A stretch of DNA of 64,000 nt from contig SKJB01000083.1 of NCBI GenBank assembly GCA_007116145.1, positions 5,404 through 69,403 on the forward strand. Reading direction: 5' to 3'. The notes below the pieces were generated by a model that saw nothing but the letters and a program-made list of their open reading frames with translations, had not been told where the DNA came from and did not search any database. The translations under genes and the position numbers were made by a program. This document shows, piece by piece, positions 93 to 45,619 of the stretch (positions within the stretch are counted from its first letter, which is position 1; each line of letters starts with the position of its first letter). Source of the stretch: Limnochordia bacterium (GTDB lineage: Bacteria; Bacillota; Limnochordia; Darwinibacteriales; DTU012).

Positions 93-863
93 CTAAATAG
101 TCATAGCTCCAAACCCACCATCAACTCGCACCAGGGATCCTGTAACATAACTCGATGCTTTCTCTGATGCTAACCAGACTGTTACACCCTTTAACTCCTC
201 GGGTTTACCATAGCGATTAACTGGTGTATGCCTCATGATATCGGCTACTCGTTCGTCTGTTAGAATCTTACGATTCTGCTCTGCAGGGAAAAAGCCAGGT
301 ATAATTGCATTGACGCGAATATTATGCGGAGCTAATTCTCGAGCAAGGAACTGGGTCACACTATTCACTGCTGCTTTAGAAGCAGAATAGGTAAACACCC
401 TAGATAAAGGAGGACCTGAAGAAACCGAGGAGATATTAATTATACTTCCTCCTGTTTTTTGTGCTATCATTTTCTTAGCAAAAATCTGACTCGTCATTAC
501 CAAGCCTTTGAGATTAACATCCATAATAGCATCCCATTCATCCATTTTTAAGTCAAAAAACGGTGTCGAGCTGTTAAGTCCAGGTGCGTAGAGTAGGATA
601 TCAATCGATTTTGCCCAGTCCCAAATCTCATCTGCCGCTCTTTGGATACTATCTTGAACCGTTACATCTGCTACAAACGATTGAATCTCTCCGCCCATAG
701 CTTGAATTTGCTCTTCTACTTCAGTTCCTAGTTCTGCCTTCATGACAACAGAGGCAATTCTAGCTCCATGTTCAACAAATCCTTCAGCGACCGATCGTGC
801 TAACGTACTATTTCCACCAATTATTACTGCTGTTTTTCCTTTTAAACTAAATAAGTCACTCAT
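93..863 (-). CDS. SDR-family oxidoreductase (sugar-acid dehydrogenase-like)
   Basis: YSASK catalytic motif, IINISS, IRVNAIIPG, VDGG; glycine-rich motif is degenerate (IIGGNSTLA). Confidence 0.8.
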   Translation of the reverse strand: MSDLFSLKGKTAVIIGGNSTLARSVAEGFVEHGARIASVVMKAELGTEVEEQIQAMGGEIQSFVADVTVQDSIQRAADEIWDWAKSIDILLYAPGLNSSTPFFDLKMDEWDAIMDVNLKGLVMTSQIFAKKMIAQKTGGSIINISSVSSGPPLSRVFTYSASKAAVNSVTQFLARELAPHNIRVNAIIPGFFPAEQNRKILTDERVADIMRHTPVNRYGKPEELKGVTVWLASEKASSYVTGSLVRVDGGFGAMTI

Positions 864-897
864 CGTTATGTTCCTCCTTAAAATATATCACCTTGCA

Positions 898-2172
898 TTA
901 CAGACAGATAATATTTCCCTCACCATTAAAAGAGAAATCATAGGGTTCGCCGACAACCTCTAAATTTGGGTTCTTTCTTACCTCAGCCAGCATATTTTCA
1001 GAAACCTCAAGTCTACCGACATCTAACGTATTTTTAATCCGCACTAACCGAACCTTCGTAAAATCTAAAATATTACTCGTCTTGATGGCTGCTTGTATTG
1101 CTTGTCGATCATTATCTAGAGTTGTGGGAATCTTTGTGGGCGAGACCACGGTACTTGTAAGACCGTTTGCATAGATCTTTTGATAATCAACTTTTTTCAC
1201 ACAATAAGCGGTCGTAAAATCAGCAGATCCAATTCCATTGGCATTTCCTTCTGTCTCGTTTGTTAAATCTAAAACTACAATTTTCGTCACATCTGGACCA
1301 CCATGCGCGTACGGAGTAGGATACCGTCCTATTACATTCGGATCCATCCCATCACCACTAATGTTCTTACCGATTTCATCAACGACTAAAACATCAATCT
1401 GATCAAAGAACAAGCGTGGAATCCGCTGTTTAGCTTCTCGTTGTAACTCAATTTCCACAGTTTCAATGTCTTTAGCTAGAACAACACGCAATTTGAACAC
1501 CTTATCAAAAGGGTTCTCTACCGTTGCCACACCAAAGAGCACAGGTAACTTTTCCAGAATAATCCGTGCCATTGCAGGAACATGCTCAGCCATATGTTTA
1601 AAACCCAATTGATGACAGGTTTCTGCACCTTTTTGCTTTCCCAGACCAATGCTGAGCATTTTCATGAGACCACTTTCTATTGGACCACGAAATGCAGTAT
1701 GCGGTTTAACTCGATTAATTACCACAATACCATCGGCCTGCGATGCCAATGTATCGACATAAACAGGTAAGCCGTTTGGTAATTTCCCAATCTCAATCAC
1801 ATCCATTGAAGAGTGAATAGGGGCACCAACACTCTCCTCTGTAACACCTAAATGACGTAAAACTTCCCTTTGACCCTCTGCTGATGCTCCACCGTGACTA
1901 CCCATACTCGGTACAATAAACGGTTCTGCACCTGCCTCCTTAAGCACTTTGACAGTAATTCTTGTTATCTCCGAAATCTTGTCAACACCACGGCTACCAA
2001 CAGCGATAGCAATCTTCATTCCAGGCTTAATAAGCTCCAGAATGTTAGCTTGATTTAATTGTTGTTCTAGTACCCCTCCAACATCCTCTAGCTGTGTTTC
2101 GTCAAACTTCTGGCTTACACTTACCATGCGAGGAAGGGGAATATCTTTTACTAAATCAGCTACAATACTCAT
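898..2172 (-). CDS. LarA-like (DUF2088/lactate racemase domain) protein
   Basis: IAVGSRG, PSMGSHGG, NRVKPHTAF, IGKNISGDGMDPN motifs typical of this family. Confidence 0.7.
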   Translation of the reverse strand: MSIVADLVKDIPLPRMVSVSQKFDETQLEDVGGVLEQQLNQANILELIKPGMKIAIAVGSRGVDKISEITRITVKVLKEAGAEPFIVPSMGSHGGASAEGQREVLRHLGVTEESVGAPIHSSMDVIEIGKLPNGLPVYVDTLASQADGIVVINRVKPHTAFRGPIESGLMKMLSIGLGKQKGAETCHQLGFKHMAEHVPAMARIILEKLPVLFGVATVENPFDKVFKLRVVLAKDIETVEIELQREAKQRIPRLFFDQIDVLVVDEIGKNISGDGMDPNVIGRYPTPYAHGGPDVTKIVVLDLTNETEGNANGIGSADFTTAYCVKKVDYQKIYANGLTSTVVSPTKIPTTLDNDRQAIQAAIKTSNILDFTKVRLVRIKNTLDVGRLEVSENMLAEVRKNPNLEVVGEPYDFSFNGEGNIICL

Positions 2173-4413: not shown

Positions 4414-5658
4414 TTATGCGCGTGTTGTCCCTTTACCATAGACAATGTACTTGGTGGTGGTTAGTTCGTTTAAACCCATTGGTCCTCGGGCATGGAGCTT
4501 CTGCGTACTAATTCCAATTTCAGCCCCCATACCAAACTGAGATCCATCGGTAAACCGCGTTGAAGCATTAACATATACGGCTGCTGCGTCGACTTCTGCT
4601 AAAAAACGCTGGGCATGGGTATAAGACTCCGTAACAATCGCTTCAGAATGTCTTGTGCCGTAGCGAGCAATATGATCGAGCCCGTCATCGAAGGTTTTTA
4701 TTACACGCACCGCTAAAGTCAGGTCAAGATATTCGGTTTCCCAATCACTCTCACTAGCTAATTCAACATCAGGTAGGATCTGCTTTACTTGGGTGCAACC
4801 GCGCACAAGCACTCCCTTCGCTTTTAGTGCTTCATAGACTTGAGGCAAGAATTCATCAGCGACATCACTGTGGACCAACAACGTTTCGGCTGCATTACAA
4901 ACAGCTGGCCTTTGCGTCTTTGCATTAATGGTGATCGCACACGCATCCGCTAGATTCGCACTCTCATCAACAAAAATATGACAGTTTCCTACTCCAGTCT
5001 CGATCACAGGTACAGTAGAATGATTAATAACAGCTTGAATCAGCCCTGCCCCACCGCGCGGAATAATTACATCGATATATTGATTGAGTTTCATCATTTG
5101 CTGTACTTGGGCACGATCAGTATCTTCGACAATCTGTACGATTTCGGGCGACAATTCGACGTTTACAAGGGCTTGCCGTAAAAGCGCTACAATGCGTTGA
5201 TTAGAACGAACTGCTTCGCTTCCGCCCCGAAGAATAACTGCATTACCTGCTTTTAAACACAACCCTGTAGCATCAGCAGTTACATTCGGGCGCGCTTCAT
5301 AGATGATTCCGATTACACCAAGTGGAACACGCACTTTATTGATTTGTAGACCATTAGGGCGAACCATACCATGCAACACTTCACCGAGTGGATCAGGCAT
5401 ACTTGCGACCTCTCGCATTCCTTGTGCCATGTCCATAATGCGATCATCAGTTAGAGCTAGCCTGTCTAACAAGGCTCCACTAATACCTTTGTCCTGAGCA
5501 TTTTGCAAGTCGATTCTATTGGCCGATAGAATCTCATCCTTATTATTAATAAGAATTAAGGCCATTTCCTCTAATACCTTGTTTCTCAGTGAACTTTTTA
5601 CCCTTTGCCAAGTCCGAATAGCTTCTTTTGCTAACTTTGCCTTCTCAACGATCTCCAT
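4414..5658 (-). CDS. proA: Gamma-glutamyl phosphate reductase
   Basis: IIYEARPNV, VCNAAETLL, NASTRFTDG, ISTQKLHARGPMGL. Confidence 0.97.
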   Translation of the reverse strand: MEIVEKAKLAKEAIRTWQRVKSSLRNKVLEEMALILINNKDEILSANRIDLQNAQDKGISGALLDRLALTDDRIMDMAQGMREVASMPDPLGEVLHGMVRPNGLQINKVRVPLGVIGIIYEARPNVTADATGLCLKAGNAVILRGGSEAVRSNQRIVALLRQALVNVELSPEIVQIVEDTDRAQVQQMMKLNQYIDVIIPRGGAGLIQAVINHSTVPVIETGVGNCHIFVDESANLADACAITINAKTQRPAVCNAAETLLVHSDVADEFLPQVYEALKAKGVLVRGCTQVKQILPDVELASESDWETEYLDLTLAVRVIKTFDDGLDHIARYGTRHSEAIVTESYTHAQRFLAEVDAAAVYVNASTRFTDGSQFGMGAEIGISTQKLHARGPMGLNELTTTKYIVYGKGTTRA

Positions 5659-6778
5659 GACACTCTCTCCTCTCTAACATATCCATCATGACCATATTAT
5701 CACGATGAATTACTTCATCAAACGGGTGGTTTGGCAAGATATCCTCAACAGCAGATGAAATTTGCCCTTTAATAGACGCAACCTCTTGAGCCGAATAGTA
5801 GGATAACCCGCGGGCGATTTCGTGTCCGTGTTCACTGACAATCTGTACTAAATCACCTGCATTAAAACTACCTGTACAACGTAAAACCCCAGCAGGAAGC
5901 AGACTCTTACCTGCCTTCAGAGCCTGTTGCGCTCCGTCATCAACAACAATTTGACCATGAGGATGGGTATAGAATGCTAACCATCGCTTGCGACTCGGCC
6001 ATGCAACGGTTTGCGGGGAAAATAATGTGCCCACCGATTGACCAGCTACTAATTGTCCAAGTAAACCAGGTTTCGAACCATTCGTAATAACCATCGGAAT
6101 TCCAGAACACCGAGCAATCTTAGCGGCTTGAAACTTCGTCGCCATACCACCGGTTCCTAAAGAACCAACTCCGCCAGCAAGGCTCTCAATGTCCTTTGTG
6201 ACCTCTGCTATCACTGGAATCAATTGGGCATTTGGGTACTCTCGTGGATCTTTATCATAAACACCATCTATATCCGAGAGAACCACAAGTAAATCGGCAT
6301 TAATTAAATTAGCAACCATGGCCGATAACCGATCATTATCACCAAATTTAATTTCATCCACTGCCACTGAATCATTTTCATTCACAATAGGTACCACACG
6401 CTTATGTAAGAGATTCTCCAACGTATTACCACAATTTAAATAGCGATTACGTTGCTGTAAATCCTCCGCTGTTAATAACACCTGGGCACAAACATGACAA
6501 TATTCGGCAAATATCTTAGCATACACCTGCATGAGCATACCCTGACCAACTGCAGCAACAGCTTGCTTTTCAGGAATAGTTACGGGCCTTTTATCCATCC
6601 CTAAGCGACTCATTCCAGCGCCTATAGCTCCAGACGTTACGAGAACCACTTCATGACCCTCATTAACCAAATCGGATAATTCCCGCACCAAACGTTCAAT
6701 CTGACCAAGCTGTAGGCGTCCGTTTGGATACGTTAGAGTGCTGGTTCCTACCTTAACCACAATACGACTTTTCTTCAT
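5645..6778 (-). CDS. proB: Glutamate 5-kinase with PUA domain
   Basis: VVKVGTS, NENDSV, FGDNDRLS, GTGGMATK; overlaps the proA start. Confidence 0.97.
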   Translation of the reverse strand: MKKSRIVVKVGTSTLTYPNGRLQLGQIERLVRELSDLVNEGHEVVLVTSGAIGAGMSRLGMDKRPVTIPEKQAVAAVGQGMLMQVYAKIFAEYCHVCAQVLLTAEDLQQRNRYLNCGNTLENLLHKRVVPIVNENDSVAVDEIKFGDNDRLSAMVANLINADLLVVLSDIDGVYDKDPREYPNAQLIPVIAEVTKDIESLAGGVGSLGTGGMATKFQAAKIARCSGIPMVITNGSKPGLLGQLVAGQSVGTLFSPQTVAWPSRKRWLAFYTHPHGQIVVDDGAQQALKAGKSLLPAGVLRCTGSFNAGDLVQIVSEHGHEIARGLSYYSAQEVASIKGQISSAVEDILPNHPFDEVIHRDNMVMMDMLERRECHGDR

Positions 6779-6898
6779 AGCAATTCACTACTTTCCAACA
6801 TCGTTGTTCTATCTATTTTATCGCAATTGCTCTACAACAGCAACGCTTTTTTTGGCGGGCAACAAGGTATTCAGCGGTAAAATCATATACATTACATG

Positions 6899-6927
6899 TT
6901 GACAAAAGGATTCATACTCTATATAAT
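6899..6927 (+). promoter_or_regulatory. Sigma-A promoter of the aro leader/operon
   Basis: Perfect TTGACA-17 nt-TATAAT. Confidence 0.9.
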
Positions 6928-6959
6928 TGAGCAAACTAGAGAAACCGTGGGTGTGTGCG

Positions 6960-7106
6960 ATGACAACAACTACAAAAACAGCGAGCACACAAGTTAATAG
7001 TTTTGCTTATTATTTTAGCTGGGGCTATTATTTTTTTAGCGTTGGCTATTTTTATTGGAGTAGAGCAAAATATAAACGAATTCTAAAAGGATCCCACGCA
7101 GTGTAA
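6960..7106 (+). CDS. Aromatic-rich leader peptide (48 aa), putative attenuator peptide
   Basis: Hand translation MTTTTKTASTQVNSFAYYFSWGYYFFSVGYFYWSRAKYKRILKGSHAV*; 5 Phe, 7 Tyr, 2 Trp; lies between the promoter and the terminator upstream of DAHP synthase. Confidence 0.8.
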   Translation: MTTTTKTASTQVNSFAYYFSWGYYFFSVGYFYWSRAKYKRILKGSHAV

Positions 7107-7144
7107 AGACTGCTCCCTAGCAATTGTATTTAGAGGCTTTGTGT

Positions 7145-7171
7145 GGAGACTTTTAGCAAAGTCTTTTTTTT
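7145..7171 (+). terminator. Attenuator terminator in the aro leader
   Basis: GGAGACTTT-TAGC-AAAGTCTTT stem running into a T8 tract; its 5' arm can alternatively pair with 7085-7100. Confidence 0.8.
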
Positions 7172-7199
7172 ATTCAACAAATTAAAAGGAGGATTTCCA

Positions 7200-8213
7200 A
7201 TGGTAATTGTTATGAAACCCAATACGCCCCAAAGCGAAATTCACAGATTGCATGAGAAACTGAAAACGCTAGGCTTTGATGTTAATCTCTCGCAAGGGCA
7301 TAATTACACTTTGTTAGGTCTTATTGGTGATACTACCCAGATTAACGAAAGTCAATTACAGGCCAACACCTATGTGGATCGCGTTATGCGTGTTCAGCAC
7401 GCTTTTAAGCGAGCCAGCCGACACTTCCACCCCCAAGATACAGTCATTGATATTGATGGCCACAAAGTCGGTGGTGGTCACTTACTAATGATCGCAGGAC
7501 CTTGTGCGGTGGAATCCCAAGAACAGATACTTACTATTGCAAAGAGCGTTAAGGGCCTTGGAGCACAGTTACTGCGAGGCGGAGCATTTAAACCTCGCAC
7601 TTCACCCTATAGCTTTCAGGGCTTAGAAGAAGAAGGTCTAAAAGTTCTGCTCGAAGCAAAACGACAGACTGGAATGCCAATTGTGACAGAATGTGTTTCA
7701 TCGGAAACTGTTGATCTAGTAGCAAATTACGCAGATGTCCTCCAAATCGGAGCGAGAAACATGCAAAACTTTGCTCTCTTGAAAAAAGTGGGTCAAACCA
7801 AGAAAACAATTCTTCTGAAACGAGGTCTAGCTGCCACTATTGAGGAGCTACTGATGGCTGCAGAGTATATTATGTCCGAGGGAAACACGAACGTGATTTT
7901 GTGTGAACGGGGAATTCGTACCTACGAGACCTATACACGCAATACGCTAGATATCAGTGCAATTCCTGCTATCAAGGAATTATCGCATTTACCAATTATT
8001 TGCGATCCTAGTCATGCAGCTGGGAAGTGGGAAATGGTTGCACCCTTAGCCAAAGCAGCTATTGCAGCAGGAGCTGATGGTCTGATTGTCGAAGTACACC
8101 ATCAGCCGGAACTCGCTTTCTCTGACGGAGCCCAATCGCTCAAGCCCGAAAAGTATGGGCATCTAGTGTCGGCGGTTCAAAAAATTGCAGCAATCCAAAA
8201 TGCTTACGTTTAA
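7200..8213 (+). CDS. aroF: DAHP synthase type I-beta with N-terminal regulatory domain
   Basis: IAGPCAVES, RGGAFKPRTSPYSFQG, QIGARNMQN, DPSHA; start moved to ATG 7200 after AAGGAGG. Confidence 0.95.
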   Translation: MVIVMKPNTPQSEIHRLHEKLKTLGFDVNLSQGHNYTLLGLIGDTTQINESQLQANTYVDRVMRVQHAFKRASRHFHPQDTVIDIDGHKVGGGHLLMIAGPCAVESQEQILTIAKSVKGLGAQLLRGGAFKPRTSPYSFQGLEEEGLKVLLEAKRQTGMPIVTECVSSETVDLVANYADVLQIGARNMQNFALLKKVGQTKKTILLKRGLAATIEELLMAAEYIMSEGNTNVILCERGIRTYETYTRNTLDISAIPAIKELSHLPIICDPSHAAGKWEMVAPLAKAAIAAGADGLIVEVHHQPELAFSDGAQSLKPEKYGHLVSAVQKIAAIQNAYV

Positions 8214-8246
8214 TTGTGTTTGGATGAAAGGGGAGCACTCTACCAC

Positions 8247-9107
8247 ATGAAAAGAATAGCCTACCCTGGTGTTCCTGGGTCTTTTAGTGAACAAGCACTA
8301 ACTCAATACTTTCCTGGATCCGCAAAAAAAACGAACGTGAAACAATTTGAAGAAATTTTCACATTACTAGCCAATAACGAAATTGATTACGGAGTGCTTC
8401 CCATTGAAAATTCAAGCACAGGAGGAATTTTTGAGGTTTTTGACTTTCTCAAACAATATAATTTTTATATAGTCGGGGAGACATTCATCCATGTCACCCA
8501 TCATTTATTGGGAACATCTGGCACCACCCTTGCATCCATTCAAGCCGTGTATTCGCATCCACAAGGGTTTGGACAAAGCAGGGTTTTTCTCAAGCAGTAT
8601 CCCCATTGGATTGAGACCCCGTATTATAACACAGCTATAAGTGCTGAATATGTCAGTCAAGTAAAGGATATCACGAAAGCGGCTATTGCCAGCAAGCGTG
8701 CGGGAGAACTTTATGGTCTAGATGTAATTCAAGCTAATATCCAGGATGTCAATCACAATTATACCCGATTTGTGATCATCAGTCGCAATCTTGAAGTCAA
8801 AGTAACAGACACGAAAATTAGTTTACTCTATGCTCTGCCAAACAGTGTCGGTGCCTTATACAATAGTCTAGGAATATTCGCACGTTACAACATTGACCTG
8901 CTAAACCTGCAATCTCGCCCTATCAAAGACAAACCGTGGGAATGTTACTTCTACCTTGACTTGGTAGGTAATTTGGACAAGGACAACGTTAAAGCAGCAC
9001 TCTTAGAAATAGAGAAAATCAGTTACTCTCTGCAGATTCTCGGCAGCTATAGCGCTAGTGATGATAATGGAGGTTCCATAAGTTCATCAAAAAAAGGCTC
9101 TTCCTGA
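8247..9107 (+). CDS. pheA: Prephenate dehydratase (PDT-ACT)
   Basis: GSFSE, LPIENSSTG, SHPQ, NYTRF, SRPIK; ATG 8247 after AAGGGGAG. Confidence 0.9.
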   Translation: MKRIAYPGVPGSFSEQALTQYFPGSAKKTNVKQFEEIFTLLANNEIDYGVLPIENSSTGGIFEVFDFLKQYNFYIVGETFIHVTHHLLGTSGTTLASIQAVYSHPQGFGQSRVFLKQYPHWIETPYYNTAISAEYVSQVKDITKAAIASKRAGELYGLDVIQANIQDVNHNYTRFVIISRNLEVKVTDTKISLLYALPNSVGALYNSLGIFARYNIDLLNLQSRPIKDKPWECYFYLDLVGNLDKDNVKAALLEIEKISYSLQILGSYSASDDNGGSISSSKKGSS

Positions 9108-9117
9108 GCCTTTTTTT
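9089..9117. terminator. Bidirectional terminator
   Basis: A7-GGCTC-TTCCT-GAGCC-T7 between convergent genes. Confidence 0.8.
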
Positions 9118-9162
9118 GATCCCGCAATAACTTCAACTCAAAATTGATAAGAAACGTCCGAC

Positions 9163-9513
9163 TTAAGGGGCTACACGCTCTGAATCATTCACAAACTGAC
9201 GATAAAAGTACTCTCCTAGCGTCACTAGAATTGCAAAAGCTAGTAAAGTTGCGAAAGTAGTTCGAAATCCTGTAAGCAATCTAGCCATGATCCAAGCAAC
9301 AAGTGCAGCCATAATGCCGTCCGCCACTGAAGCGACGCTACTATCTGTTGTAGGTAGAATCATTCTATCCCCTATAAAGTAATTAACCGCTGTCGCAATA
9401 ATAGCATAAACGAAGACCAAACTAGCTGGATTAGTATCAAATAACGTTAGAGTGGATAATGCAAAAACAAACATCATGATAAACTTTATTCCTAAAGCTA
9501 TCGTTATTGTCAC
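9163..9513 (-). CDS. YndM/DUF2512-like sporulation membrane protein
   Basis: Four hydrophobic segments; IKF, YFIGD..ILP, VAD, GEYFY pattern. Confidence 0.7.
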   Translation of the reverse strand: MTITIALGIKFIMMFVFALSTLTLFDTNPASLVFVYAIIATAVNYFIGDRMILPTTDSSVASVADGIMAALVAWIMARLLTGFRTTFATLLAFAILVTLGEYFYRQFVNDSERVAP

Positions 9514-10253: not shown

Positions 10254-11729
10254 ATGACTATGAAACTATCTAAATCAATCGAAAAAAACCTCGAAATATT
10301 CCAGCAGAAAATTTTCCATGATGACGATGTTATCCGATACAGACGATTTACTCTGGGAAATACGCAAATAAAGTGCGGAATAATCTTTATTGATAGTATG
10401 ATCGATAAAGATTATCTTGGCGAGAACGTTATTTCTCCACTAACGCGCTGTAAATCGGAATCTATTCATTTACGCGAGATCTATCCATCCATTGAAAATA
10501 TCATTGCTGTCGAATCCCTAAGGATATCAAAAGGACTAGAGCAGATGATTGAGGGCATCCTCTACGGCGATGCCCTGTTACTCATTGACGGCACCGATTT
10601 AGGAATGATATTAAGCGTTAAAGGCTGGGAGTACCGCAGCATTAGTGAGCCCACTTCTGAGAGTGTAGTACGGGGATCTCGAGAAGGATTTACCGAGTCC
10701 ATCATCATAAACATCTCGCTACTGCGACGTAAAATCCAGGATTCTCGTCTAAAGTTTAAAATGCAGGAACTAGGCAGACGTACAAAAACGAAGATAGCTA
10801 TCTGTTATATCGAAGATCTGGTTTCGCCGCAAATCCTGCAGGAAGTCTTTGAACGGATCAACAAGATTGACATAGATGGCATTTTGGAATCTGGTTATAT
10901 TGAGGAACTAATCAAAGATTCTCCATTAAGTCCTTTTAAAACTGTGGGGCATACAGAACGTCCCGATATCTTAGCAGGCAAAATACTAGAAGGACGAGTA
11001 GGAATTCTCTGTGATGGAACTCCTTTTGTATTAACAGTACCCTTCATCTTTATGGAGGGGTTTCAAAGCAATGAAGACTATTACCGCAACTGGGCTTTAG
11101 CTTCTTTGGACCGGATGCTACGCTATGTCGGTTTTTTTATTACAACAAGCACTCCAGCCATTTATCTATCTCTAATCACCTATCACCAGGAAATGATTCC
11201 GACACCACTGCTCCTAAGCATCTCTGCCGCGAGAGAAGGAATCCCGTTCCCTACCATTTTCGAACTCATTGTGCTTGGATTAGTTTTTGAAATTCTGCGC
11301 GAGGGAGGAGTCCGTCTTCCTTCGCCAATCGGTCAAGCCCTTAGTATCGTCGGTGCTATTGTTTTAGGTGATGCAGCCGTAACTGCAAATTTTGTGAGCG
11401 CTCCTATGATTATTGTCATTGCTCTAACTGGAATCTCAAGCTTTGTGATCCCGCAATTTTTAGGGGTTGTGATTCTTATCCGCTTAGCCTTCGTTTTGTT
11501 TGCGTCCGTACTAGGACTTTACGGCTTTGTTTTTGCAGTCATTGGGCTATTTATTCACCTGATGTCAATTCGCTCTTTTGGTATTCCCTATATGACAGAG
11601 CTATCCTCATATAAACTCGAAGATGTTAAAGATACAGTGATCCGGGCCCCCTGGTGGTGGATGCAACGCCGGCCAAAACTGATCACAAAAAAAAATAGAC
11701 CGAAACGCAAAAGGATTGAAGGCAAATGA
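10254..11729 (+). CDS. Spore germination receptor A subunit (GerKA/GerAA family)
   Basis: RGSREGFTE, TERPD, DGTPFVL, REGIPFP, EILREGGVRLP. Confidence 0.93.
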   Translation: MTMKLSKSIEKNLEIFQQKIFHDDDVIRYRRFTLGNTQIKCGIIFIDSMIDKDYLGENVISPLTRCKSESIHLREIYPSIENIIAVESLRISKGLEQMIEGILYGDALLLIDGTDLGMILSVKGWEYRSISEPTSESVVRGSREGFTESIIINISLLRRKIQDSRLKFKMQELGRRTKTKIAICYIEDLVSPQILQEVFERINKIDIDGILESGYIEELIKDSPLSPFKTVGHTERPDILAGKILEGRVGILCDGTPFVLTVPFIFMEGFQSNEDYYRNWALASLDRMLRYVGFFITTSTPAIYLSLITYHQEMIPTPLLLSISAAREGIPFPTIFELIVLGLVFEILREGGVRLPSPIGQALSIVGAIVLGDAAVTANFVSAPMIIVIALTGISSFVIPQFLGVVILIRLAFVLFASVLGLYGFVFAVIGLFIHLMSIRSFGIPYMTELSSYKLEDVKDTVIRAPWWWMQRRPKLITKKNRPKRKRIEGK

Positions 11730-45481: not shown

Positions 45482-45514
45482 AAAAACAAGACTCCTACCA
45501 GTTGGTAGAAGTCT
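45482..45514 (-). terminator. pyr leader attenuator terminator
   Basis: Minus strand AGACTTCTACCA-AC-TGGTAGGAGTCT-TGTTTTT upstream of pyrB. Confidence 0.75.
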
Positions 45515-45563
45515 AAACATACATAGAGTAAGACGTGAGAACACGCTACTTTTGTATAGACGT

Positions 45564-45596
45564 CCTTCCCAACCTCACTGGATTGGATTAAAGGTC
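45564..45596 (-). ncRNA. PyrR-binding RNA element 2
   Basis: Minus strand GACCTTTAA-TCC-AATCCAGTGAGGTTGGGAAGG, matching the UUUAA...ARUCCNGNGAGGYU consensus. Confidence 0.8.
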
Positions 45597-45619
45597 CATT
45601 GTAATGTAATTGTCTATGC

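Follow-up and report, generated by a model that had tools for sequence, protein, structure and literature searches.

A probable leader-peptide attenuator upstream of aroF-pheA in a Limnochordia bacterium and the unnamed family to which it belongs

Leader-peptide attenuators such as trpL, pheL (of pheA) and hisL, which follow the Yanofsky model, are classical in Proteobacteria. For amino-acid genes Firmicutes typically rely on T-boxes, TRAP and riboswitches, and attenuation by the ribosome is regarded as proteobacterial or actinobacterial. The amino-acid leader families of Rfam include Phe, Trp and Leu/Phe leaders. The subject of this report is the leader of an aroF-pheA operon (DAHP synthase and prephenate dehydratase) in a Limnochordia bacterium, contained in a 64,000-nucleotide stretch of contig SKJB01000083.1 (GenBank assembly GCA_007116145.1), hereafter the window. 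All coordinates are positions in this stretch, and the leader region examined is 6899-7199. To judge from its sequence and that of its relatives, the element is very probably a ribosome-mediated leader-peptide transcription attenuator of aroF-pheA.

Comparable arrangements have been described. In Corynebacterium glutamicum, as summarized in a review, the aroR leader peptide (Phe-Tyr-Phe) attenuates the aroF operon, and only Phe limitation mattered (Neshat et al. 2014, via PMC11802643). The candidate upstream open reading frame (uORF) uORFC-13-1, located before aroF, is described with 24 representatives from Acholeplasma and environmental DNA only (Brewer et al. 2021, PMC8632094). A survey of five genomes including Clostridium novyi NT mentions two candidate Phe/Tyr uORFs with shikimate metabolism genes (Stav et al. 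2019, PMC6429828). An earlier note on this DNA, made from the sequence alone, knew of no description of this arrangement; with these three cases in print, at least as far as their descriptions go, that statement is too broad. A full-text literature search, supplements not covered, returned no paper giving the mechanism of the present family in Firmicutes, and uORFC-13-1 is not among the Rfam matches in the scans made here.

The leader is composed of the following features.

6899-6927, plus strand: sigma-A type promoter, TTGACA at 6899-6904, 17-nucleotide spacer, TATAAT at 6922-6927; 12 of 12 consensus positions match
6949-6953, plus strand: weak Shine-Dalgarno-like GGGTG, 6 nucleotides upstream of ATG 6960, read from the sequence
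6960-7106, plus strand: putative leader peptide uORF of 48 codons, MTTTTKTASTQVNSFAYYFSWGYYFFSVGYFYWSRAKYKRILKGSHAV, from ATG 6960 to TAA 7104-7106
7002-7058, plus strand: candidate regulatory codon run FAYYFSWGYYFFSVGYFYW, 13 Phe/Tyr/Trp codons in 19 (5 Phe, 6 Tyr, 2 Trp), the window maximum
7017-7047, plus strand: predicted internal hairpin, 5' arm AGCUGGGGCUA (7017-7027), 3' arm UAGCGUUGGCU (7037-7047), followed by the U-rich AUUUUUAUU; -12.4 kcal/mol
7083-7100, plus strand: predicted antiterminator 5' strand (region 2), CUAAAAGGAUCCCACGCA, which pairs with 7140-7156 and overlaps the last 7 codons before the stop
7140-7156, plus strand: shared strand (region 3) formed by the terminator 5' arm and loop, also the partner of region 2 in folds and RNAduplex
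7145-7171, plus strand: predicted intrinsic terminator, GGAGACTTT (7145-7153), loop TAGC (7154-7157), AAAGTCTTT (7158-7166), U-run 7164-7171; -6.9 kcal/mol

The earlier note had described a perfect sigma-A promoter, a 48-codon reading frame, a stretch with 13 aromatic residues in 19, a terminator at 7145-7171 and an alternative helix that takes up the terminator's 5' arm, and all were recovered in these places, the terminator as a weak one. The 48-codon frame, which the note gives as absent from its track of open reading frames (ORFs), is listed as part of a 59-amino-acid ORF that starts with TTG at 6927, but this TTG lies within the -10 box. Among the 1,977 stop-to-stop frames of at least 19 amino acids in the window, 13 aromatic residues per 19 is the single top value, and the runner-up has 10. 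A second aromatic-rich small ORF of the genome (contig C47, 10 of 12 residues aromatic) was rejected as a leader, since its Phe codons are the T-rich tail of a terminator.

In the most stable fold predicted for 7060-7180 (-25.5 kcal/mol), 7083-7100 is base-paired with 7140-7156, and RNAduplex gives -14.3 for these two strands. With the RNA masked to 7118, as by a ribosome at the stop codon, the terminator hairpin remains (-11.0 kcal/mol, the energy of the extended hairpin 7132-7166); with the RNA masked only to 7072, as by a ribosome at the aromatic codons, the antiterminator persists (-22.6). Both outcomes agree with the attenuation geometry, and with the masking check, that the earlier note had put forward. 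The final core aromatic codon lies at 7056-7058, the antiterminator strand starts at 7083 and the stop codon occupies 7104-7106; the ribosome footprint sizes used in this reasoning are general knowledge.

Transcription would start just past the -10 box at 6927, and a ribosome starting at ATG 6960 would read the 48-codon leader with its Phe/Tyr/Trp run midway. With ample charged tRNA-Phe and tRNA-Tyr, and perhaps tRNA-Trp, the ribosome would reach the end of the leader and cover 7083-7100 while 7140-7171 is being made; the weak terminator hairpin would then form and transcription would end before aroF. With any one of these tRNAs poorly charged, the ribosome would stall within 7002-7058, its footprint ending before 7083, and 7083-7100 would be free to pair with 7140-7156, taking up the terminator 5' arm and allowing read-through into aroF-pheA.

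The order was sampled with 41 genomes, namely the window's own and 40 relatives. A DNA search detected the leader in five of them and a peptide profile (cut-off E 0.01) in eight; in the class the profile found it in 8 of 95 genomes, with none among the 54 outside the order. Every hit in the order has a promoter, a Shine-Dalgarno sequence with ATG, a uORF whose core reads [YF]FSWGYY(Y/F)SAGY, in another rendering FSWGY[YF]Y(F)SAGYF, and a terminator, followed by DAHP synthase. In the relatives' loci TTGACA/TATAAT-like boxes stand at the equivalent place upstream of the uORF, and the terminators of the order (GGAGACUUUU..AAGUCUCC plus U-run) are homologous to that of the window. Two genomes carry more than one copy: G012 has two, and G014 has three, of which two precede DAHP synthase genes and one a dehydroquinate synthase gene. 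Divergent second copies are found before second DAHP synthase genes at L142 (G012, contig C144) and L140 (G014, contig C86) (FFTSRGFFSAGYS, FFASWGFSFSAGYF), the former being missed by the profile at the above cut-off. The family is patchily distributed, the leader being present in 10 of 401 genomes of an even sample of the phylum; a search for divergent members in the order of G189 yielded 1 of 54 genomes, G189 itself only.

Control of DAHP synthase is not uniform within the window's order, where the gene may follow a uORF, no uORF or a T-box. In g5, a sister genus within the family, no uORF accompanies the orthologous DAHP synthase at the two of five loci that were parsed, L134 (G007) and L137 (G006), the gene start not having been located in L135, L136 and L138. 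At L137 the promoter runs directly into the ribosome site. At L134 a terminator-like hairpin (GAGACUGAGCAGAGUCUC plus U-run) without uORF lies about 35 nucleotides past the promoter, as if the leader had been deleted, and the g5 orthologues appear by sequence to have lost the uORF. The leader is absent from all 27 genomes of family f3 in the order. Most f3 genomes match the window DAHP synthase only from about residue 55-72, so that the N-terminal ferredoxin-like domain is missing.

Further members were obtained from public contigs, one genome per species, with a degenerate DNA pattern of the core, which gave 98 stretches, 80 of them listed; about 17 would be expected by chance (our own arithmetic). 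Small ORFs with the core were present in 50 of the 80 listed stretches. The carriers are Clostridium (magnum, tyrobutyricum, carboxidivorans, drakei and others), Megasphaera, Anaeroglobus, Pelosinus, Lucifera, Eubacterium barkeri, Peptostreptococcaceae, Anoxynatronum, Cellulosilyticaceae and many uncultured Bacillota, and the distribution thus covers both Clostridia and Negativicutes. The next gene encodes DAHP synthase in 37 of the 50 loci; in eight it is a shikimate kinase, a chorismate mutase-shikimate kinase fusion, a prephenate dehydrogenase or an Iso_dh-like ORF, and in the remaining five the locus ended. Over all members the element precedes four kinds of aromatic-pathway gene (DAHP synthase, shikimate kinase, prephenate dehydrogenase and dehydroquinate synthase). 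A hairpin with a T-run lies 38-105 nucleotides past the uORF stop in 53 of 55 members. At L097, from a Peptoclostridium metagenome-assembled genome, leader and terminator stand before a 250-amino-acid ORF with a partial isocitrate/isopropylmalate dehydrogenase match (3.9e-9), the one next gene that is not obviously of the aromatic pathway. Searches of Pfam and NCBIfam assigned the peptides to no family, one relative giving a single chance hit at E 0.18, and the window peptide and one Clostridium peptide are absent from a protein cluster collection, which includes the Clostridium tyrobutyricum peptide only under the name 'hypothetical protein'. Family members in general either lack an annotation or bear this label. 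The family is conserved, has no name in Rfam, Pfam or NCBIfam, and seems uncharacterised.

The evidence for the antiterminator is comparative; the window by itself folds no better than shuffled sequences. For 52 members the upstream stretch that pairs best with the terminator 5' arm and loop was determined. In 41 of these it lies 49-79 nucleotides past the core start, either within the uORF or at its end; in the order, each of the nine members has it overlapping the final codons or the stop, and in other clades it lies 9-51 nucleotides before the stop. The sequences differ between clades and remain complementary: AAUGAGUU pairs with GGCUCAUU in most clostridia, CAUGAG with CUCAUG in Megasphaera, CUAAAAGGAUCC with GGAGACUUUUAG in the window's order and AAAUCUCUAU with AUAGAGGCUU in G011, while the remaining clades have unrelated antiterminator sequences, again complementary. 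The compensatory changes extend into the terminator loop, as in CUAAAAGG/CUUUUAG versus CCAAAAGG/CUUUUGG, in AAAUCUCUAU/AUAGAGGCUU (G011) and in GUGA/UCAC (G009); this loop has no partner in the terminator stem, and several of the covarying changes sit there.

Specificity across clades rests on an energy permutation test with 11 representatives of different terminator types. Pairing with the member's own upstream RNA gave -12.27 kcal/mol, compared with -9.96 +/- 0.79 for permuted combinations, and 60 of 20,000 permutations were as good. Base pairs were counted on alignment A7 only, because in the MAFFT alignments A3 and A4 the antiterminator strand is misaligned for some clades. Of the 42 unique sequences from outside the order, A7 includes 30; L036, L041, L043, L059, L068, L072, L075, L078, L081, L088, L096 and L098, which have other terminator-arm types or are duplicates, were left out. 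In these 30 'CUCAU'-type members 87.4% of cells pair, against 22-45% in slid controls, and 13 cells carry changes on both sides, a number attained in 0 of 500 shuffles.

A second structure lies within the codon run itself. The internal hairpin pairs AGC-UGG-GGC-UA with UA-GC-GCU-GGC-U (7017-7027/7037-7047) and does not involve the antiterminator strand. In 55 family sequences 98.7% of its cells are paired, a figure partly built in by the search pattern, which fixed many core bases; two-sided changes occur at 4 of 10 pairs, and 0 of 500 shuffles reach this. The informative cases, all from members found by profile and not by pattern, comprise UGG to UUG with GCU to GCA, UGG to CAA with GUU GGU, UAU to CGU with AGC to GGU, and GGC to GGU with AGC to AAC. 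The likeliest role of the hairpin and the U-rich stretch behind it would be that of a pause or early-stop site for the polymerase, melted by the following ribosome so that transcription is coupled to translation.

Phe and Tyr are likely the main signals and Trp an optional one, since the 23-residue family core has mean counts of 5.4 Phe, 5.1 Tyr and 1.2 Trp codons, the Trp is replaced in some members and trpE has a separate T-box in the same genome. The core Trp codon sits in a hairpin arm, and several members have Leu, Gln or Arg in its place. The earlier note's proposal that one peptide integrates all three amino acids is therefore retained for Phe and Tyr and is overstated for Trp, although the two Trp codons of the window may add a Trp response.

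Three other explanations of the conserved leader were considered. The first is an attenuator in which the RNA itself senses a ligand, a tRNA or a protein (riboswitch, T-box-like or TRAP-like), with the hairpin as sensor and the frame incidental. Conservation of the core at the nucleotide level together with a covarying hairpin would suit such a system, as would the frequency of such systems in Firmicutes. A T-box (RF00230, 112.8 bits) before the orthologous DAHP synthase in G026, of the same order, also speaks for it. The G026 locus, L143, carries back-to-back T-boxes at 807-1044 (minus strand) and 1169-1425 (plus strand), the latter before a full-length DAHP synthase. In the window leader, by contrast, Rfam 15 gave a sole hit in 6780-7260 at E up to 10, a chance match to a long non-coding RNA on the other strand (E 2.7), and no RF00230, although this T-box model matches 11 sites elsewhere in the window's genome, with T-boxes before trpE, pheS and tyrS; the whole window at gathering score has no T-box or leader family, and 17 family loci (110 kb) have no Rfam match. 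The reading frame is also open in all 53 unique family leaders (mean 49 codons), against 154 and 258 stops in the other two frames. Length changes in the core are by threes or sixes, and the N-terminal part varies freely yet retains an ATG with Shine-Dalgarno sequence, an in-frame ATG behind a Shine-Dalgarno-like word of at least 4 nucleotides being present in 48 of the 50 pattern-scan members. The enriched amino acids, finally, are the pathway's own products. A sensor RNA with an incidental frame is accordingly very improbable.

The second is that the uORF encodes an arrest peptide whose FSWGY..SAGY core stalls the ribosome via the exit tunnel, perhaps sensing free aromatic amino acids. TnaC is an arrest peptide of this kind that responds to tryptophan. 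Conservation of Ser, Gly and Ala across classes is unusual for simple leader peptides and would speak for an arrest peptide, but it is explained by the codons of these residues, which form the arms of the internal hairpin. Amino-acid replacements there, such as Trp to Leu (UUG), Trp to Gln (CAA) and Tyr to Arg (CGU), carry compensating base changes, which indicates constraint on the RNA and not on the peptide. A free amino acid should, moreover, turn the pathway off, whereas stalling at this leader would free the antiterminator. Arrest through the exit tunnel is thus considered highly unlikely. The third, that the ORF is a small hydrophobic protein with its own function (for example a membrane peptide) and the hairpin its leaky terminator, draws on the hydrophobic core followed by basic residues and on the annotation 'hypothetical protein' in Clostridium tyrobutyricum, and has scarcely any likelihood given that the ORF always lies directly before same-strand aromatic-pathway genes of four kinds, that the antiterminator strand within it covaries with the terminator, that its C-terminal part and its length (26-66 amino acids) are not conserved, and that no protein in a large collection shares three 5-residue words with the window peptide.

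Several observations weigh against a leader-peptide attenuator. The window terminator is weak, with 2 G-C pairs and with 2 G-U pairs at its base, and was missed by a consensus terminator scan because its stem has only 2 G-C pairs; the uORF is preceded by a weak Shine-Dalgarno sequence (GGGTG). The whole leader folds with a z-score of -1.64, 17 of 200 shuffles folding equally well, and when the upstream RNA is shuffled, 41 of 100 versions equal or exceed the real sequence in pairing with the window terminator arm. Of 52 family members, only 11 have a duplex equalled by no more than 5 of 100 shuffles, and 11 of 52 have their best partner in or beside the codon run and not at the expected place; in member L025 the scan found no terminator between uORF and gene. 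Among the RNA runs listed, none contains this stretch, and one metatranscriptome from the same study has scarcely any of its sequence words. Conservation of the core among the 50 loci is partly built in by a pattern that fixed many core bases, and at one 'CUCAU'-type pair (AU:17, CG:8, GU:3) the CG cells belong to related Negativicutes, and one or two events may account for them. The classical protector helix between regions 1 and 2 was not found; pairing of the core with the antiterminator strand was examined as a candidate and rejected, the core being nearly invariant while the strand differs between clades. Since the antiterminator is the best fold, an untranslated leader would form it, unless the internal hairpin stops the polymerase.

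Set against these points, the conserved ORF with its start signals, the terminator, the covarying helix, the occurrence before four kinds of pathway gene and the lack of a T-box support the core of the earlier note, a leader-peptide attenuator of aroF-pheA in a Firmicute. Two of the checks that it had suggested likewise came out in its favour: aromatic-rich uORFs before aroF with helix covariation exist in relatives (8 of the 41 genomes of the order), and the search for a T-box in 6780-7260 was negative. More tentatively, the attenuator might have two checkpoints, an idea that we regard as possible and rather doubtful. The internal hairpin 7017-7047, made up of Ser/Trp/Gly and Ser/Ala/Gly codons and trailed by the U-rich stretch, would act as a pause or early stop that lets the polymerase pass only with a ribosome on the leader, and the choice at the terminator would then read the stall position. 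If true, this would replace the classical region 1:2 protector, would account for the near letter-perfect conservation of the peptide from Clostridia to Negativicutes, and would mean that anaerobic Firmicutes have in this family their principal ribosome-sensing switch for the shikimate pathway.

The region 6500-9500 contains 8 promoter-like sites, compared with 6.1 +/- 2.5 in shuffled sequences, of which the one at 6899-6927 is the only perfect one. A spacer of 420 bases separates proB (5645-6778, minus strand) from the divergent DAHP synthase gene. The features downstream of the leader are as follows.

7187-7193, plus strand: strong Shine-Dalgarno sequence AAGGAGG of aroF, before ATG 7200, read from the sequence
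7200-8213, plus strand: aroF-type DAHP synthase with N-terminal ferredoxin-like domain (Pfam DAHP_synth_1, 6.7e-81; DAHP_snth_FXD, 2.1e-22)
8247-9107, plus strand: pheA, prephenate dehydratase (Pfam PDT, 9.8e-57), ATG 8247; the listed ORF starts with TTG at 8214

When the full leader is folded, its best structure pairs the terminator 3' arm and U-run (7158-7171) with the aroF Shine-Dalgarno region (7182-7195). By this predicted pairing the ribosome site could be masked in the read-through form; equally, it may be a trivial match of a U-run with a purine run. Farther downstream, the 491-amino-acid ORF at 10254-11729 (plus strand) may encode a GerA-type spore germination protein, by its general likeness to such proteins. 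The sole Rfam match of the window is a PyrR binding site (RF00515) at 45482-45598 on the minus strand, with 62.4 bits, above the gathering score.

The analysis adds a widespread family, so far without a name, whose antiterminator covaries and whose codon run contains a hairpin. It provides a ready model for annotation, as an Rfam-type family, and would mark a brake that can be removed when clostridia are engineered for aromatic products. The family may also account for the unexplained premature termination reported in the 5' untranslated region of Clostridioides difficile aroF (Fuchs et al. 2020, bioRxiv 10.1101/2020.08.10.244764), although from that report's description this is a guess.

Among the published uORFs, the two candidate shikimate uORFs of Stav et al. 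probably belong to the family, by description only; a pair would fit the aroF and aroK copies of Clostridium magnum (loci L028 and L051), and the passages of that survey on these uORFs give no mechanism, covariation or distribution. As far as its description goes, uORFC-13-1 is alike in being a Phe-codon candidate uORF with an adjoining intrinsic terminator, restricted to aroF, and in having an extra paired element with comparative support. The aroR leader of Corynebacterium glutamicum resembles the window leader as a leader peptide with Phe and Tyr codons that attenuates a DAHP synthase operon; as the review describes it, it differs in belonging to an Actinobacterium and in its Phe-Tyr-Phe sequence, whereas the window family carries about 10-13 aromatic codons together with a hairpin that is conserved. 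With the classical attenuators the window leader shares the promoter, a uORF rich in codons for the end products, the terminator, a competing antiterminator and control by ribosome position. Unlike them, the family combines three aromatic amino acids in one run and has a self-contained covarying hairpin in place of the region 1:2 helix, and the window's host is a Firmicute that also uses T-boxes, with a leader that matches no Rfam leader family. T-box leaders perform the same task, in that they sense aminoacyl-tRNA supply by antitermination, but they bind the tRNA directly, whereas the window leader would sense it through the translating ribosome; one genome thus appears to combine the two, controlling trpE, pheS and tyrS through T-boxes and the shikimate entry step plus pheA through a leader peptide.

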